Source of the DNA: an uncultured bacterium
GTDB taxonomy: Bacteria > Chlamydiota > Chlamydiia > Chlamydiales > SM23-39
Direction: 5' to 3'
DNA: 64,000 nt
NCBI GenBank assembly: GCA_964351495.1
Contig: CAYGOC010000005.1
Coordinates: 16,407 to 80,406 of the forward strand
Positions 39,074 to 42,954 of the stretch are shown here, piece after piece. The stretch's first letter is position 1. The number at the start of each line of letters is the position of its first letter. The notes under the pieces are model-generated. The model was not told the origin of the DNA. It ran no database searches and saw nothing but the letters and a program-made list of their open reading frames with translations. A program made the position numbers and the translations under genes.

Positions 39074-40294
39074 ATGTCGCAGATTGTCAGTGCAAAAGAA
39101 AAAAAGAGTCTTTTACGTAAAAAAAACTCTTTTTGTAATGCTTGTTCTTCTCCTATAAAAGAGCTTATTTCGTTGCCTTCTCTTCCCTTTACGGGAATTT
39201 ATCTTTCTTCTGAAGAGACTGCTGAATTTCCTTTTTCTGAGGGAGTAGATCAGGGATTTTCTTTTTGTGAAAGCTGTTTTCATGGAGAGTTAACCTCTGT
39301 TATAGATCCTAATTTTGTCTACGATCGTACTTACACTCATAGAGGTTCTAAAAGTGCCATTGCCAAAGGGGGAAATGAGTTTTTTGTTCGGTTTGTCGAA
39401 AAGCTATTTCCAGGGAAAAAATTTGAGACTATTTTCGATATTGGTTGTAATGACGGCTTTTTATTAAGGCAGTTAGAGTACAAAGGAAAGTCCCTTTTCG
39501 GGGTAGATCCTATTTGGGAAGAAAAGAACATAGCCTTAACAGAAAAAATTAATCTGTTAGGGGGGTTTGTGGAAGATTTAGATATAGAACAAGTCTTAGG
39601 AAGGAGCCCAGATTTAGTTGTTTCAGCGCATACTTTTGAGCATATTGAAAATCCAAAAGCGGTTTTAGAATCTCTTGTACAAAAGGTAGATATAGGCACT
39701 TACTTTGTAATAGAAGTTCCTAGTTTAGACACACTTGTTAGAAATAATCGGTTTGATCAGATATTTCACCAGCATATACAGTATTTTTCCTCCAATTCAA
39801 TACTTACTTTAATGGAGATCTTAGGCTGTTTTTATGTTGCTCACACGTTTAATTATTCTATGTGGGGAGGAACGATGCTTTTTGCTTTTGTGAAAGGGAA
39901 AAAAGAAAGTGTAACTCCTCTTTTTTCCTCTTTTAAGGCGGAAGAGATTCTTTCTTCTTATGATTTATTTAAAGCTTCTTTAAAAAATCTTTCAAATAAG
40001 ATTTGTTCTTTAAAAAAAGAGTCTATATGTGCTTTTGGAGCAGCTCAAATGCTTCCTATTTTAGCCTATCACATGCCTTGTCATTTTCAGGATATAACCC
40101 AGATTTACGACGACAATAAAGAGAGACATTTTTTGAAATATCCAGGTTTTGATTTCACGGTTCAAAATCCAGATAAAGTATCTTTTGAGGATAAGACAGT
40201 AGTTGTTACTGCCTTAGATAGTTCTCGTCCGATAGTAAATAGATTAAATCTTGCTGGGGCAAAAAGCATTTTGTTACCTTTGCAGAGTTTATGA
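39074..40294 (+). CDS. NDP-sugar C-methyltransferase-like (TylC3 family architecture), divergent copy
   Basis: N-terminal Cys pairs (CNAC...CESC). FDIGCNDGFLLRQL and RFDQIFHQHIQYFS are collinear with 52965..54164. Confidence 0.7.
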   Translation: MSQIVSAKEKKSLLRKKNSFCNACSSPIKELISLPSLPFTGIYLSSEETAEFPFSEGVDQGFSFCESCFHGELTSVIDPNFVYDRTYTHRGSKSAIAKGGNEFFVRFVEKLFPGKKFETIFDIGCNDGFLLRQLEYKGKSLFGVDPIWEEKNIALTEKINLLGGFVEDLDIEQVLGRSPDLVVSAHTFEHIENPKAVLESLVQKVDIGTYFVIEVPSLDTLVRNNRFDQIFHQHIQYFSSNSILTLMEILGCFYVAHTFNYSMWGGTMLFAFVKGKKESVTPLFSSFKAEEILSSYDLFKASLKNLSNKICSLKKESICAFGAAQMLPILAYHMPCHFQDITQIYDDNKERHFLKYPGFDFTVQNPDKVSFEDKTVVVTALDSSRPIVNRLNLAGAKSILLPLQSL

Positions 40295-41160
40295 TGAAGA
40301 GGCTAAAAATAGCTATTCTGGGAACGGGGAAGTTAGCTACAGATTTATTGGTAAAGGTGCTCGGTTCTTCTAAGTTAGAGTGTGTGGCTTTTGTTGGAAG
40401 AAATGAAAATTCATATGGCATAAGTTTTGCTAAAAACAAAGGGGTTTACACCTCTTTTGGGGGGATACAATTTCTTGTAGATAATCCCCGTTTGTACGAT
40501 TTAGTTTTTGATGTAACGAATGCCCAATCACATCTTATTCATAATAAGCTTTTGTCTCCTCTTGATAAGTATATTATAGACTTAACCCCTTCTCATACGG
40601 GGGCTTTTATAGTCCCTTCTATAAATTTACAAGAGACCTCTTCTACAAAAAAGGTGAACTTAGTCAGTTGTGGTGGTCAGACAGCCATTCCTTTAATTCA
40701 TGAGATTGTATCCAGAGCAGAGCAAGTAGAAGCTATTGAAGTGGTTTCTACAATTGCTGCAAAGAGTGCAGGTAAAGGGACTCGAATTAATATTGACGAG
40801 TATATAGGGAGAACAGAGCTTGCTGTTTCCCGTTTTTCCGGTTGTCAAAAAGTGAAAGTGATACTTGTTTTGAATCCAGCTGTTCCTGAAATTGATATGA
40901 AGACGACTCTATATATTAAGGGGAAGCATGCTAGTATGCATTCCATTAATGAGGGGGTTTCAAAAATTTTACGTAAAATGCAAGATTATGTACCGGGATA
41001 CTCTTTAAAAATCCCTCCAAGCTTTCAAGGGGATGTTTTAATGTTAACGGTACAAGTAGTGGGTAGGGGAGATTATCTTCCTTGTTATGCAGGAAACTTA
41101 GATATTATAAACTGTGCGGCTATACAGGTTGCAGAAGAATATGCAATGAGGGCTGTTTGA
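40291..41160 (+). CDS. acetaldehyde dehydrogenase (CoA-acylating), DmpF/MhpF-like
   Basis: KIAILGTGKLATDLLVKVL, and NLVSCGGQTAIPLIHEI carrying the catalytic Cys. Confidence 0.8.
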   Translation: MMKRLKIAILGTGKLATDLLVKVLGSSKLECVAFVGRNENSYGISFAKNKGVYTSFGGIQFLVDNPRLYDLVFDVTNAQSHLIHNKLLSPLDKYIIDLTPSHTGAFIVPSINLQETSSTKKVNLVSCGGQTAIPLIHEIVSRAEQVEAIEVVSTIAAKSAGKGTRINIDEYIGRTELAVSRFSGCQKVKVILVLNPAVPEIDMKTTLYIKGKHASMHSINEGVSKILRKMQDYVPGYSLKIPPSFQGDVLMLTVQVVGRGDYLPCYAGNLDIINCAAIQVAEEYAMRAV

Positions 41161-42182
41161 TGTCTCACTATATAGAAATTAGTGATGTTTCTTTAAGAGA
41201 TGGAAACCATGCTGTTTCCCATCAGCTTTCCTGTGAGCATATTTTTTCTTATGCAAAAAAAGCAGATACCGCTGGTCCTTCGTATATAGAAGTAGGGCAT
41301 GGAAATGGTATCGGTGCTAGTTCTTTCCAGGTAGGTCTTGCGCTTCATTCTGATTTAGAAATGATTCAAGCGGCTAGAAAGGCCATAAAAAAAAGAAAGT
41401 TAAGTGTTCATGCTATTCCTGGTTTTGCAACTTTAGACAAAGATATTAAGCCCGCTTTAGAAAAAGGGGTAGACACTTTCAGAATAGCTTCTCACTGCAC
41501 AGAAGCAGATACAACAGAGACTCATATCTCTTTTTTGCATAAAAATAATATAGAGGTTTTGGGAGTACTTATGATGTCCCATATGGCTTCAAAAGAAGGG
41601 TTGCTGGAGTCGGCAAAATTAATGCAGGCATATGGAGCATCAGCTGTTATTCTTATGGATTCGGCAGGTGCTTATTTACCTGAGGATGTAAAAAAGAAAG
41701 TCTCTTTTTTGGTAGATCACTTAAGCATTAAAGTGGGGTTTCATGCTCACAATAACCTCGGCCTTGCTGTTTCTAATTCTATATTAGCAGCTGAGTGTGG
41801 AGCCACCTTATTAGATGCTTCTTCCAGGGGGTTTGGGGCAGGAGCCGGAAATTGTCCTATAGAAATACTAGTTCCGCTTTTGCATAAGTTAGGATACAAA
41901 ACTTCTGCAGATGCTCATGAAATTTTAGATCTTGCTGATTTTGCAGAAAGTACGTTTATTCAAACTTTACCTTTTTCAAAAACGCTAAGTATATGTACCG
42001 GCTTAGCGGGTCTTTTTTCTGGATTTGCAAAACCAATACAAAAGATGTGTGATAGATATCAAGTTGATCCTAAAAAAGTAATAGAAAAAATGGGGTCTAT
42101 GCAGGTAGTGGCAGGGCAAGAGGATAGTATTTTAGAAGCCATAAAAAGTGTGTTGGAAGATGATCCGAAAAAACCTTCTTAA
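41160..42182 (+). CDS. 4-hydroxy-2-oxovalerate aldolase, DmpG/MhpE-like
   Basis: ISDVSLRDGNHAVSHQ, VGHGNGIGASS and FHAHNNLGLAVSNSILAAECGATLLDAS. The ATG overlaps the upstream TGA by 1 nt; the track ORF has a spurious upstream extension. Confidence 0.8.
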   Translation: MSHYIEISDVSLRDGNHAVSHQLSCEHIFSYAKKADTAGPSYIEVGHGNGIGASSFQVGLALHSDLEMIQAARKAIKKRKLSVHAIPGFATLDKDIKPALEKGVDTFRIASHCTEADTTETHISFLHKNNIEVLGVLMMSHMASKEGLLESAKLMQAYGASAVILMDSAGAYLPEDVKKKVSFLVDHLSIKVGFHAHNNLGLAVSNSILAAECGATLLDASSRGFGAGAGNCPIEILVPLLHKLGYKTSADAHEILDLADFAESTFIQTLPFSKTLSICTGLAGLFSGFAKPIQKMCDRYQVDPKKVIEKMGSMQVVAGQEDSILEAIKSVLEDDPKKPS

Positions 42183-42954
42183 AAAAGCTCTTTTACAGGA
42201 AGAGGTTGTATTTGGAACCTGGTCTGTTTTGCAATCTTTTACAGCAGTAGAAATGTTGGCTAAAACGCCTCTTAATTTTATTATTTTTGATCGGGAGCAT
42301 GATTCTATTTCTTATGAGAGGATTGCAAACTATGTAACATGTTGTTTTTTACATGGAGTAACTCCTATTGTAAGGATTCCTGAGATTACTATAAGCGAAG
42401 TACAAAGGGCTTTAGACTCAGGAGCTCAAGGACTACATATTCCCAATATTAGCAGTCCAAAACAGGTGGAAGAATTGATCAAGCTGGCTTTATTTCCTCC
42501 TATTGGGAAGAGGGGGTTTTCTCCTTTTACTAAAGCTTGTGGATATCAAAAAGAAAATGCCGTTTCTATGTTGCAAGAAACGAATGAAGAGCTTCTTTTA
42601 GTAATTCATATAGAAAACTTAGAAGGAATAAAAAATATATCGAAGCTTCTTTCTTATGATCCTATAGAGGTGTTTTTCATAGGACTTTTTGACTTGGCAA
42701 ACTCCATGGGACTTCCCGGAGATATAAGGCATCCTTATTTACAAGAGGTGGTAAAGGTAGCTGTAAAAGAGATTCGGGAAAAAGGTAAAATACCAGGGAC
42801 AATTGCTACTACCCTTGAACAAGCTGAATATCTTTTAGAGCTTGGTTTTCAATATATTACTGTTTCTTCTGATGTAGACAGGCTTTTTCTTTCCTACACA
42901 AATTTTTTAGAAAAACTAAACTATACAAAGAGTGTTTATGGATTTAAATCTTAA
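42160..42954 (+). CDS. HpcH/HpaI-family class II pyruvate aldolase
   Basis: Collinear with E. coli HpaI as I recall it: FGTWSVLQS, FIIFDREHDSIS, IVRIP, FPPIGKRGF, HIENLEGIKNI, FIGLFDLANSMG. Confidence 0.8.
   Translation: MIRKNLLKKALLQEEVVFGTWSVLQSFTAVEMLAKTPLNFIIFDREHDSISYERIANYVTCCFLHGVTPIVRIPEITISEVQRALDSGAQGLHIPNISSPKQVEELIKLALFPPIGKRGFSPFTKACGYQKENAVSMLQETNEELLLVIHIENLEGIKNISKLLSYDPIEVFFIGLFDLANSMGLPGDIRHPYLQEVVKVAVKEIREKGKIPGTIATTLEQAEYLLELGFQYITVSSDVDRLFLSYTNFLEKLNYTKSVYGFKS

Follow-up and report, generated by a model that had tools for sequence, protein, structure and literature searches.

What do enzymes of the DmpF, DmpG and HpaI families, known from the breakdown of aromatic compounds, do among the sugar genes of a chlamydia? 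This question is raised by three adjoining genes in the window studied here, i.e., the whole 64,000-nt stretch of DNA covering positions 16,407–80,406 (forward strand) of contig CAYGOC010000005.1 in assembly GCA_964351495.1. Judged from sequence comparisons, we give a probability of roughly 70% to the trio supplying keto acids to a ThDP-dependent pathway that builds an acyl-branched sugar of a lipopolysaccharide- or O-antigen-like glycan.

Organization of the gene block

The DmpF-type, DmpG-type and HpcH/HpaI-family genes (40291–42954, + strand) were all intact and overlapped each other and their neighbors, as had been stated in a sequence-only reading of this DNA; the motifs quoted there, SCGGQTAIP, LRDGNHA, HAHNNLG, FDREH and GKRGF, were all present, and the catalytic residues were conserved. 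Profile matches of all three proteins exceeded chance by a wide margin. The trio forms the center of a six-gene cassette encoding, in this order, a sugar C-methyltransferase-like protein, DmpF, DmpG, HpcH, a short-chain dehydrogenase/reductase (SDR) and a YerE-like ThDP enzyme. Start and stop codons, read from the DNA, overlapped throughout: ATGA (40291–40294) between the C-methyltransferase and DmpF genes, TGATG (41158–41162) between DmpF and DmpG, 23 nt between DmpG and HpcH, 17 nt between HpcH and the SDR (ATG at 42938), and TTGA (43726–43729) between the SDR and the ThDP enzyme. The first gene (39074–40294, + strand) encodes a divergent protein of 406 aa that matched Pfam Methyltransf_23 (71 bits) and, weakly, the Methyltransf_13 zinc-binding domain. 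Its best solved relatives were the sugar 3-C-methyltransferases MtmC (4RV9), TcaB9 and KijD1, and it was kept 5′ of DmpF in six related loci (L001, L002, L004, L088, L008, and L012).

The cassette lies within a glycan island of about 33 kb in a genome of the Chlamydiota recovered from a biofilm metagenome. Family matches of the neighboring genes bore out the glycan-operon setting proposed earlier, and the reduced-metabolism lineage supposed at that time was identified as Chlamydiota by a GreA-fusion protein (model NF004969, 830 bits; cut-off 697), by topA, which runs off the end of the window and whose 3′ end matched the TopA/SWI-fusion model NF004966, and by the Chlamydiota names borne by homologs of the neighboring HldE-like gene. 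At the start of the island, a GT9 heptosyltransferase-family gene (28081–29256, + strand; Glyco_transf_9, 67 bits) ties it to assembly of the LPS core type; the UvrB–GT9 neighborhood was also found in L004 and L091. Between this gene and the cassette, family matches and synteny delimited a chlamydial heptose core (31207–38978, + strand), which was syntenic in L001, L004, L089, L090, and L091. It contained genes for two epimerase/reductases, a GmhA-like SIS isomerase, a reversed-domain HldE-like nucleotidyltransferase/kinase, a PDH-E1 alpha/beta pair (an alpha-KADH2-type ThDP enzyme), a methyltransferase and an RmlB-like 4,6-dehydratase whose best solved relatives were dTDP-glucose 4,6-dehydratases. 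This core may provide a nucleotide-4-keto-6-deoxyheptose as acceptor, and a C2 branch as well. On the other flank, family matches identified a GT2 glycosyltransferase (45431–46369, − strand) and a Zn-dependent alcohol dehydrogenase (46427–47497, + strand), both kept beside the cassette in L001. In L008 and L091 the alcohol dehydrogenase gene lies immediately 3′ of E1 alpha/beta, a position suggesting that the enzyme reduces the C2 branch.

The aldolases, their partner and their relatives

The first gene of the trio (40291–41160, + strand) encodes a DmpF/BphJ/ErwJ-type acylating acetaldehyde dehydrogenase of 289 aa (TIGR03215, 322.5 bits; cut-off 282). Its catalytic Cys127 (VSCGGQ) aligned with Cys132 of DmpF (1NVM_B); in RINIDEY, the N-I was conserved. 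The second (41160–42182, + strand; alternative start TTG at 41157) encodes a DmpG/BphI/ErwI-type class II pyruvate aldolase of 340 aa with the DmpG communication domain (TIGR03217, 335 bits; cut-off 286; Pfam HMGL-like and DmpG_comm), in which the Arg, Asp, His and His-x-His residues were conserved. Both proteins thus passed the NCBI equivalog cut-offs of the catabolic enzymes with a full set of catalytic residues, which speaks for the trio being the lower end of an aromatic/steroid meta-cleavage or homoprotocatechuate pathway, gaining energy by cleaving 4-hydroxy-2-oxoacids into pyruvate and acyl-CoA. This explanation is, however, already close to refuted. The search for upstream catabolic enzymes that had been proposed as a check found no dioxygenase, hydrolase or hydratase gene of a meta-cleavage pathway in the window. 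In E. coli mhpF is directly preceded by mhpD, whereas here DmpF is preceded by a sugar methyltransferase gene, and the trio overlaps sugar-pathway genes. Moreover, every sampled relative was located in a glycan cluster, and the DmpG-like protein fell into a clade apart from the catabolic enzymes and lacked their Leu/Tyr pair.

This pair corresponds to Leu87 and Tyr290 of BphI. The catabolic enzymes compared (n = 5) carry Leu and Tyr at these positions, whereas His and Phe were found in the DmpG of the window, and all of the 120 nearest DmpG homologs carry His or Phe at the first position and Phe at the second. The chain-length position, Leu89 of BphI, is occupied by Ile and hence not by a smaller residue. 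In BphI, stereocontrol is lost in the Y290F mutant, and specificity flips from 4S to 4R in the L87N/Y290F and L87W/Y290F double mutants (PMC3962088).

A neighbor-joining tree placed the glycan-linked DmpG clade apart from DmpG, MhpE and 8IH7, and also separate from the catabolic HsaF; the corresponding tree of DmpF agreed with it. Nine contexts were fetched from among the closest DmpG homologs, and each of them was a sugar cluster with a YerE-like enzyme, while HpcH was present in six and absent from three. Genes for DmpF, DmpG, HpcH and the ThDP enzyme co-occurred in loci from Elusimicrobia, Spirochaetota, Duganella, Omnitrophota and Planctomycetia. The cassette genes were monophyletic among chlamydia-type loci, and the phylogenies, which had been suggested for identifying donors, placed Planctomycetia and Omnitrophota as sisters of the chlamydia-type cassette. 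Since the trees of the cassette proteins were congruent, these appear to have evolved as a unit. Of the earlier proposal of horizontal acquisition followed by repurposing, the first part is plausible because the heptose core occurs in related chlamydiae that lack the cassette; sequence composition gave no sign of a recent transfer. The second part does not hold for this lineage, because DmpF and DmpG belong to a glycan-dedicated clade that spans many phyla and has its own active-site signature.

The third gene of the trio (ATG at 42160, or GTG at 42148, to 42954, + strand) encodes a divergent class II pyruvate aldolase of 264–268 aa. The earlier label of HpaI homolog is correct for the HpcH/HpaI family (PF03328, 66.6 bits; cut-off 25), but the HpaI equivalog model TIGR02311 gave no more than 140 bits (cut-off 368.8), so that the protein belongs to the family without being an HpaI ortholog. 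Residues His51, Arg76, Glu156 and Asp182, counted from the GTG start, aligned with His45, Arg70, Glu149 and Asp175 of EcHpaI. We regard it as the probable second keto acid-forming enzyme of the cassette. A dedicated source of its aldehyde was not evident, which counts against the scheme proposed below. One or both aldolases might instead join pyruvate to a sugar or short hydroxy-aldehyde, yielding a 3-deoxy-2-ulosonic acid that is nucleotide-activated and incorporated into the glycan, with the ThDP enzyme serving a separate purpose. Sugar aldehydes had already been suggested as substrates, AbHpaI forms 2-keto-3-deoxygalactonate from pyruvate and glyceraldehyde (PMC8560999), and close HpcH homologs in other phyla (L009 and L010) adjoin CMP-sugar-type cytidylyltransferases (CTP_transf_3) and a 2-hydroxyacid dehydrogenase or epimerase. 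We nevertheless consider this route unlikely, given that the cassette contains no activating enzyme of the CTP_transf_3 type, that the HpcH gene overlaps those of DmpG and the SDR and consistently accompanies that of the YerE-like enzyme, and that DmpG, channel-coupled to an acetaldehyde-forming partner, is ill suited to sugars.

The ThDP enzyme, the reductase and the predicted pathway

The last cassette gene (43726–45498, + strand) encodes a YerE/ErwE-like ThDP-dependent carboligase of about 590 aa, counted from the TTG at 43726, with all three TPP_enzyme domains. Among its solved relatives, 5AHK, which we take to be PpYerE, scored 261 bits, a slight lead over E. coli acetolactate synthase I (247 bits); a further acetolactate synthase scored 218 bits. 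The best score was that of JanthE (8RPH, 310 bits; PMC12188165). The closeness of the acetolactate synthase structures, together with 365 bits on an acetolactate synthase model, albeit well under its cut-off of 738, would suit a plain acetolactate synthase or a YerE acting on pyruvate, with DmpF and DmpG interconverting acetaldehyde, acetyl-CoA and pyruvate pools, e.g., for acetyl supply or acetaldehyde removal. Such ordinary branched-chain or C2 chemistry is very unlikely: none of the curated acetolactate synthase cut-offs was reached, no small subunit or ilv gene was found nearby, and the characterized ErwE, which has the same gene arrangement, rejects pyruvate. Nor would pool balancing explain why DmpF, DmpG and the ThDP enzyme are so tightly linked in sugar clusters across phyla.

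Between HpcH and the ThDP enzyme lies the gene for a classical, FabG-like SDR (42938–43729, + strand; adh_short, 144.8 bits), the most conserved protein of the cassette, with 71–83% identity among chlamydia-type loci and 57–61% to Planctomycetia and Omnitrophota. In non-chlamydial clusters, an extended epimerase-family reductase is found beside DmpG in its place. The conservation of the SDR and its matches to acetoacetyl-CoA reductase and FabG models (TIGR01829, 123 bits; PRK12826, 162 bits; all below cut-off) could indicate that it acts first, reducing a 3-oxoacyl-CoA to a 3-hydroxyacyl-CoA, which the DmpF-like enzyme would convert to a 3-hydroxy-aldehyde for pyruvate addition by DmpG or HpcH; the donor would then be a C7 dihydroxy-keto acid, and another enzyme would reduce the branch ketone. 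BphI mutated at Leu89 does become more specific for longer aldehydes (up to C6; PMC3962088), but the Ile at this position in DmpG is no smaller, the non-chlamydial clusters keep DmpF and DmpG without this SDR, and its gene occupies the place expected of a branch reductase. A longer starter is therefore improbable, and the SDR is more readily seen as the reductase of the acyl branch, a functional analog of YerF/ErwF.

For the pathway that we favor, a published scheme exists for the acyl-branched sugars erwiniose and caryophyllose, in which a ThDP enzyme uses a keto acid to branch a nucleotide-4-keto sugar, the branch then being completed by a reductase (Steitz et al., 2022, Angew Chem; PMC9306805). 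By analogy, the DmpF-like enzyme would convert acetyl-CoA and NAD(P)H to acetaldehyde and hand it to the bound DmpG-like aldolase, which would add pyruvate to give (4R)-4-hydroxy-2-oxopentanoate. The residues of the glycan clade at the Leu87 and Tyr290 sites (here His and Phe) fit the preference of ErwE for the R acid, because the BphI double mutants go from 4S to 4R. This acid would be decarboxylated by the YerE/ErwE-like enzyme, encoded two genes downstream, which would attach a 3-hydroxybutanoyl unit to a nucleotide-activated 4-keto sugar at its keto carbon; the SDR would then reduce the branch ketone. HpcH, as a second pyruvate aldolase, may provide a 4-hydroxy-2-oxoacid donor that is longer or otherwise different, as has been proposed for MMAR_2331 in caryophyllose. 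Linking the trio to the genes for the YerE-like enzyme and the SDR, which follow it directly and with overlap, explains what the keto acids would be for: they would serve as acyl donors in the branching of a nucleotide-4-keto sugar. The synthetic direction suggested earlier (acyl-CoA to aldehyde; aldehyde plus pyruvate to 4-hydroxy-2-oxoacid) is the one that the work on the erwiniose cluster demonstrated or argued for (PMC9306805). The sequence-only reading had not linked the trio to these two downstream genes. As acceptor, a 6-deoxy-4-keto-heptose from the adjacent GmhA-like, reversed-HldE-like and 4,6-dehydratase genes is most likely; it would differ from the published 3,6-dideoxyhexose, because no 3-deoxygenation genes (DegT/E1-type 3-dehydrase, E3) were found in the window.

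Comparison with known systems

At the level of families and arrangement, a close counterpart is the erwiniose cluster of Pectobacterium atrosepticum SCRI1043, in which ErwJ (BphJ-like acetaldehyde dehydrogenase) and ErwI (BphI-like pyruvate aldolase) adjoin ErwE (ThDP) and ErwF (reductase) and form (R)-4-hydroxy-2-oxopentanoate from acetyl-CoA and pyruvate; ErwE takes this acid and rejects pyruvate (PMC9306805). Both are surface-glycan clusters with the DmpF/BphJ-like and DmpG/BphI-like genes beside a YerE-like enzyme and a reductase, the same donor is predicted, and the His/Phe signature fits the R stereochemistry required by ErwE. The two differ in host (a chlamydia instead of an enterobacterium) and in the type of reductase, a classical SDR in the window. 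In place of genes for CDP-4-keto-3,6-dideoxyglucose, the window has heptose-nucleotide genes and an RmlB-like 4,6-dehydratase, and it adds an HpcH aldolase and a C-methyltransferase-like gene. The HpcH aldolase recalls Mycobacterium marinum, where caryophyllose, with its longer (C6) hydroxylated branch, requires the aldolase/citrate-lyase-family protein MMAR_2331, paired with the YerE-like ThDP enzyme MMAR_2332; a related cluster in Rhodopseudomonas palustris CGA009 also includes a SAM methyltransferase. This likeness is at family level, and no DmpF/DmpG pair is described for these clusters (PMC9306805), whereas both aldolase types are present in the window.

Compared to the catabolic DmpFG (1NVM), BphIJ, MhpEF and HsaFG (4JN6), fold families, catalytic residues and the communication domain are shared at about 36–39% identity. 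The proteins of the window differ in their separate clade, in His/Phe for Leu87/Tyr290 and in having no meta-cleavage neighbors, and probably also in a synthetic direction and opposite stereochemistry. HpaI/HpcH, YfaU and GarL are known to accept many aldehydes and to work in the condensation direction; the HpcH of the window belongs to the same Pfam family and conserves the metal-binding residues as well as the catalytic Arg/His pair, but shows about 30% identity, falls far under each equivalog cut-off (140 vs. 368.8 bits for HpaI) and is found outside any hpa, gar or rhm context.

The O-antigen region of Coxiella burnetii (cbu0676–cbu0698) contains the epimerases CBU0676 and CBU0677, the reversed-domain HldE-like CBU0678 needed for phase I LPS, the PDH-E1 beta CBU0686, a GDP-mannose dehydratase and the TylCIII-like C-methyltransferase CBU_0691 (Beare et al., 2018; PMC5843353). 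Each of these families has members in the window, a likeness at family level; the known unusual sugars of Coxiella, virenose and dihydrohydroxystreptose, carry C1 branches, unlike the long acyl branches proposed here. Our results point to a first occurrence in an environmental chlamydia of a long-branch sugar pathway of known type, apparently feeding a heptose-derived sugar. It is set apart from the published clusters by the chlamydial host, the predicted genes for a 6-deoxy-4-keto-heptose precursor and the presence of both aldolase types together.

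Catabolic-type enzymes in a sugar cassette

The genes for a DmpF-like acetylating acetaldehyde dehydrogenase (40291–41160, + strand, 289 aa), a DmpG-like 4-hydroxy-2-oxovalerate aldolase (41160–42182, + strand, 340 aa) and an HpcH/HpaI-family protein (42160–42954, + strand, 264 aa from ATG) were all found to be intact. The first two products matched the NCBI equivalog models TIGR03215 (322.5 bits, cut-off 282) and TIGR03217 (335 bits, cut-off 286), and the third matched PF03328 (66.6 bits). The DmpF-like protein contains the catalytic Cys in VSCGGQ, which aligned to Cys132 of DmpF (1NVM). 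The DmpG-like protein contains an HMGL-like barrel and a DmpG communication domain (DmpG_comm, 57 bits), and alignment to 1NVM showed that Arg17, Asp18, His21, His200 and His202 of DmpG are all kept, with the His-x-His metal site intact.

This trio belongs to a six-gene cassette in the order C-methyltransferase-like gene, DmpF, DmpG, HpcH, FabG-like SDR and three-domain ThDP enzyme, where the first gene is a distant relative of sugar 3-C-methyltransferases and the stretch from DmpF through the ThDP enzyme occupies 40291–45498. The members overlap each other, and the junctions were, in order, ATGA, TGATG, overlaps of 23 nt and 17 nt, and TTGA. The motifs that the sequence-only reading had quoted for the trio were found to be correct, and so were its gene overlaps when the junctions were read from the DNA.

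Both window subunits pass the equivalog cut-offs for the catabolic DmpF/DmpG type. In a neighbour-joining (NJ) tree of DmpG, the window protein joined the glycan-linked copies, which formed one clade, and DmpG, MhpE and 8IH7 formed another; the DmpF tree gave the same picture, with the window protein apart from the catabolic branch. In E. coli, mhpF comes after mhpC and mhpD, and among window ORFs of at least 150 aa no match was found to the hydratase, hydrolase or ring-cleavage dioxygenase families. A catabolic role of the trio is close to excluded, and the change from a catabolic to a glycan-building role is older than the window lineage. The earlier idea that these enzymes run in the biosynthetic direction was essentially right, if incomplete.

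A difference at DmpG's active site accompanied this division. At the positions equivalent to Leu87 and Tyr290 of BphI, the window DmpG was shown by alignment to have His and Phe. Among the 120 nearest DmpG homologues and all extracted glycan-linked copies, the Leu87 equivalent was His or Phe (with one Tyr) and the Tyr290 equivalent was Phe throughout, whereas all five catabolic references (1NVM, 8IH7, 4JN6, 4LRS and E. coli MhpE) had Leu and Tyr. BphI is strictly 4S-specific; its Y290F variant loses stereocontrol, and in the L87N/Y290F and L87W/Y290F variants the specificity is inverted to 4R (PMC3962088). Since His and Phe stand at the positions where mutation inverts BphI, the window DmpG is predicted to be a natural 4R aldolase, which would agree with the preference of ErwE, the ThDP enzyme of erwiniose synthesis, for the R acid. 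The signature may be of interest to biocatalysis groups, as it points to natural 4R-selective pyruvate aldolases. Besides, because glycan-linked DmpF and DmpG, the 120 nearest DmpG homologues included, pass "catabolic" cut-offs, annotation pipelines label them as aromatic-degradation genes, and such labels inflate the predicted catabolic capacity of reduced genomes; His/Phe versus Leu/Tyr offers a simple test to separate glycan from catabolic use.

Host, glycan island and putative acceptor sugar

The host is a member of the Chlamydiota. A 715-aa GreA matched the fusion-protein model NF004969 (830 bits, cut-off 697), and the 3′ end of a gene that runs off the end of the window matched the TopA/SWI fusion model NF004966 (415 bits); both fusions are typical of chlamydiae. 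Among the 120 best HldE-like homologues, the named entries were nearly all from Chlamydiota (Neptunochlamydia, Simkaniaceae and Parachlamydiales). The window sequence was found in biofilm metagenome runs. Scans for tRNA genes and Rfam families gave no match in the window, and so no marker for taxonomy.

Among the housekeeping genes, a YjbH-family exopolysaccharide protein (11637–13781, 482 bits) and a protein of the Legionella major-outer-membrane-protein family (18982–20091) were found, which are envelope features unusual for pathogenic chlamydiae. The ThyX gene (14919–16553) encodes 544 aa, of which the thymidylate synthase model covers residues 375–516 only; the long N-terminal part gave no family match. 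ORFs of 170–480 aa with no Pfam or NCBIfam match were located at 3405–5422, 10253–11569, 26944–28068, 57342–58286 and 61730–63100. The third of these (− strand) lies where the glycan island borders on its surroundings, with an ABC transporter gene on one side and a GT9 gene on the other.

Upstream of the cassette and on the same strand we found genes for a GT9 heptosyltransferase-family protein, two epimerase/reductases, a GmhA-like isomerase, an HldE-like protein with reversed domain order, a PDH-E1 alpha/beta pair, an RmlB-like 4,6-dehydratase and a methyltransferase. The combination of GmhA-like isomerase, reversed HldE-like protein and 4,6-dehydratase points to a nucleotide-6-deoxy-4-keto-heptose as the putative acceptor. 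This heptose core is common across chlamydiae. Of two GT17-family glycosyltransferase genes at 29253–31156, one is on each strand, and a GT17 gene is also present near the cassette in the homologue-bearing locus L002; GT17 (PF04724) is best known from the eukaryotic N-glycan GlcNAc transferase III.

Sugar-branching enzymes of the E1 type (alpha-KADH2) have been described as belonging mainly to antibiotic pathways. The E1 alpha/beta pair constitutes a second ThDP system in the window, and in two homologue-bearing loci (L008 and L091) such a pair is directly followed by a Zn-alcohol dehydrogenase gene. In antibiotic sugars, enzymes of the E1 alpha/beta type attach acetyl branches that derive from pyruvate (PMC12247030).

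Downstream of the cassette, besides genes for a GT2 transferase and a Zn-alcohol dehydrogenase, there is a second deoxysugar region (50215–57345). In this region a GDP-heptose-type activation set is encoded by the genes for an epimerase, a nucleotidyltransferase and a GHMP kinase. They are accompanied by genes for a full TylCIII-type sugar C-methyltransferase (Methyltransf_13/23/14), an epimerase/reductase, an FAD oxidoreductase and a GDP-mannose 4,6-dehydratase (470 bits). The route proposed for Coxiella virenose consists of Gmd, a TylCIII-like methyltransferase and a reductase. Since the same three types of enzyme are encoded in the window, a 3-C-methyl-6-deoxyhexose may, by analogy, be the product of this region.

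The heptose core itself also resembles a part of the Coxiella O-antigen region. In Coxiella, CBU0678 is an HldE-like protein with reversed domain order that is required for phase I LPS, and CBU0686 of the O-antigen region is annotated as E1 beta (PMC5843353). The chlamydial core (31207–38978 in the window, and the loci L089, L090 and L091) likewise contains a reversed HldE-like protein and a PDH-E1 alpha/beta pair; the shared part on record consists of the reversed HldE, the epimerases and E1 beta. The Coxiella region was suspected to contain the DmpF, DmpG and HpcH genes as well, but no aldolase is mentioned in the text and supplements of the account of the Coxiella O-antigen region (PMC5843353), and Coxiella was absent among the 120 best HldE-like homologues. 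That E1-type branching enzymes occur in the LPS-type clusters of chlamydiae, and perhaps in those of Coxiella as well, merits attention.

Pathogenic chlamydiae are known to have only a short, rough Kdo-based lipopolysaccharide. In at least one environmental chlamydia lineage, a large glycan island encodes two ThDP-dependent systems for sugar branching; complexity of this order has hitherto been reported from enterobacteria, mycobacteria and antibiotic producers. If the branched-sugar model is true, the product would be an unusual long-branched heptose-derived sugar, probably antigenic, with a bearing on host recognition of chlamydial symbionts. Among the full texts searched, no paper named Chlamydiae together with a DmpG-type aldolase, and searches combining aldolase with O-antigen, C-methyltransferase or Coxiella gave nothing relevant.

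The HpcH-like aldolase

The third gene of the trio had been called an HpaI homolog. Membership of the PF03328 family was upheld, but the protein scored only 140.2 bits with the HpaI equivalog TIGR02311 (cut-off 368.8) and far below the cut-offs of the GarL and RhmA models; it is thus a divergent family member and not HpaI. Its His51, Arg76, Glu156 and Asp182 (numbered from GTG 42148) were invariant in the alignment and align with His45, Arg70, Glu149 and Asp175 of EcHpaI. Roles have been described for Arg70 and His45 of EcHpaI and for the metal ligands Glu151 and Asp177 of AbHpaI (PMC8560999).

Clusters with and without HpcH showed no other obvious gene difference in the sampled contexts of DmpG homologues. 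Close HpcH relatives elsewhere adjoin CMP-type cytidylyltransferases or HMGL-like proteins; in three loci (L006, L014 and L017) an HpcH gene adjoins genes for an Fe-S protein and an HMGL-like protein of 575 aa. Among the close relatives were also proteins with two or three HpcH domains in tandem, and one HpcH-HMGL fusion (P0253, P0254, P0256, P0258, P0262, P0281, P0331 and P0304). HpcH may supply a second donor in parallel, extend the chain in series or make an ulosonic acid.

Under serial extension, the two aldolases would act one after the other and a polyketide-like 1,3-polyol chain would be grafted onto the 6-deoxy-4-keto-heptose. The DmpF/DmpG pair would make (4R)-4-hydroxy-2-oxopentanoate, a ThDP enzyme would decarboxylate it to 3-hydroxybutanal, and HpcH would add a second pyruvate to this aldehyde; repeated aldol addition and decarboxylation would then give a chain of at least six carbons, on a heptose acceptor that may also be C-methylated or bear a C2 branch. 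The tandem HpcH proteins and the HpcH-HMGL fusion would fit such iterative use. We regard this scheme as unlikely; if true, environmental chlamydiae would carry on their surface a branched sugar of higher carbon number that is new.

Related loci and comparison with erwiniose synthesis

The preferred reading, in which the trio supplies a keto acid for an acyl-branched sugar, is consistent with the gene neighbourhoods of its relatives. Contexts were taken for nine of the closest DmpG homologues, and all nine were sugar clusters in which DmpF and DmpG adjoin the gene of a YerE-like ThDP enzyme; HpcH was present in six of them. Among the HpcH-profile matches listed from the genome-collection scan, loci of Elusimicrobia, Spirochaetota, Duganella, Omnitrophota and Planctomycetia combined DmpF, DmpG, HpcH and the ThDP enzyme, and the window genome and the named hosts of erwiniose or caryophyllose clusters were absent. 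Most non-chlamydial clusters have the genes of the classical 3,6-dideoxyhexose route, namely those for a nucleotidyltransferase, a 4,6-dehydratase and a DegT/E1-type protein.

DmpF, HpcH, the SDR and the methyltransferase showed the same branching among the cassette loci, which argues that the cassette evolved as a unit; the ThDP ORF of locus L004 was left out of this comparison, as it seems wrongly extended (25% identity). Simkaniaceae, Neptunichlamydia genomes and a Parachlamydiales MAG contain the heptose core without the six-gene cassette, which shows the cassette to be a variable add-on. Its nearest relatives beyond the chlamydia-type loci were found in Planctomycetia and Omnitrophota. 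No compositional sign of recent transfer was detected, as the GC, GC3 and codon usage of the cassette match those of the housekeeping genes in the window; any transfer was therefore not recent. Of the proposed horizontal acquisition followed by repurposing, the variable add-on agrees with the first step, but no compositional trace of a recent transfer was found, and the repurposing predates this lineage. In an erwiniose-like cluster of a Planctomycetes MAG (L094), a second ThDP gene was present at 8894–10267, broken into short ORFs for its N, M and C domains (three in all), which looks like a decaying duplicate.

The ThDP enzyme of the window contains all three TPP_enzyme domains. Its best solved relatives were JanthE (8RPH, 310 bits) and PpYerE (5AHK, 261 bits). 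Acetolactate synthases scored 247 and 218 bits, so that the margin of PpYerE is small, and no acetolactate synthase model cut-off was reached. The assignment of 8RPH to JanthE is published (PMC12188165). The Duganella ThDP enzyme was considered as a JanthE orthologue and rejected.

The erwiniose proteins ErwE, ErwF, ErwJ and ErwI of Pectobacterium atrosepticum SCRI1043 are WP_011093010–013, in this order. In this cluster, the BphJ-like acetaldehyde dehydrogenase ErwJ and the BphI-like pyruvate aldolase ErwI adjoin the YerE-like ErwE and the reductase ErwF, and as the donor for a cyclic ketone ErwE uses (R)-4-hydroxy-2-oxopentanoate but not pyruvate (Steitz et al., 2022; PMC9306805). The deduced route leads from acetyl-CoA to acetaldehyde, through aldol addition to pyruvate, to ThDP-dependent coupling with CDP-4-keto-3,6-dideoxyglucose and reduction; in the case of Mycobacterium marinum caryophyllose, MMAR_2331, from the aldolase/citrate-lyase (HpcH) family, is the aldolase (PMC9306805).

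As in the erwiniose cluster, DmpF-like and DmpG-like genes of the window stand beside those of a reductase and a YerE-like ThDP enzyme in a sugar cluster, and each part of the erwiniose scheme, matched by family and arrangement, is represented side by side. Of the genes for the acceptor CDP-4-keto-3,6-dideoxy-D-glucose, the window has a 4,6-dehydratase but lacks the DegT/E1-type and E3 genes, and contains heptose-nucleotide genes instead; with these in place of 3-deoxygenation genes, it represents a variant of the erwiniose pathway in its predicted acceptor. It also differs from the published clusters in combining both aldolase types with a C-methyltransferase-like gene, in having a classical rather than an extended SDR as reductase, and in its chlamydial host. 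The window cassette probably belongs to a pathway type described in 2022, with a novel host and, by inference, a novel acceptor.
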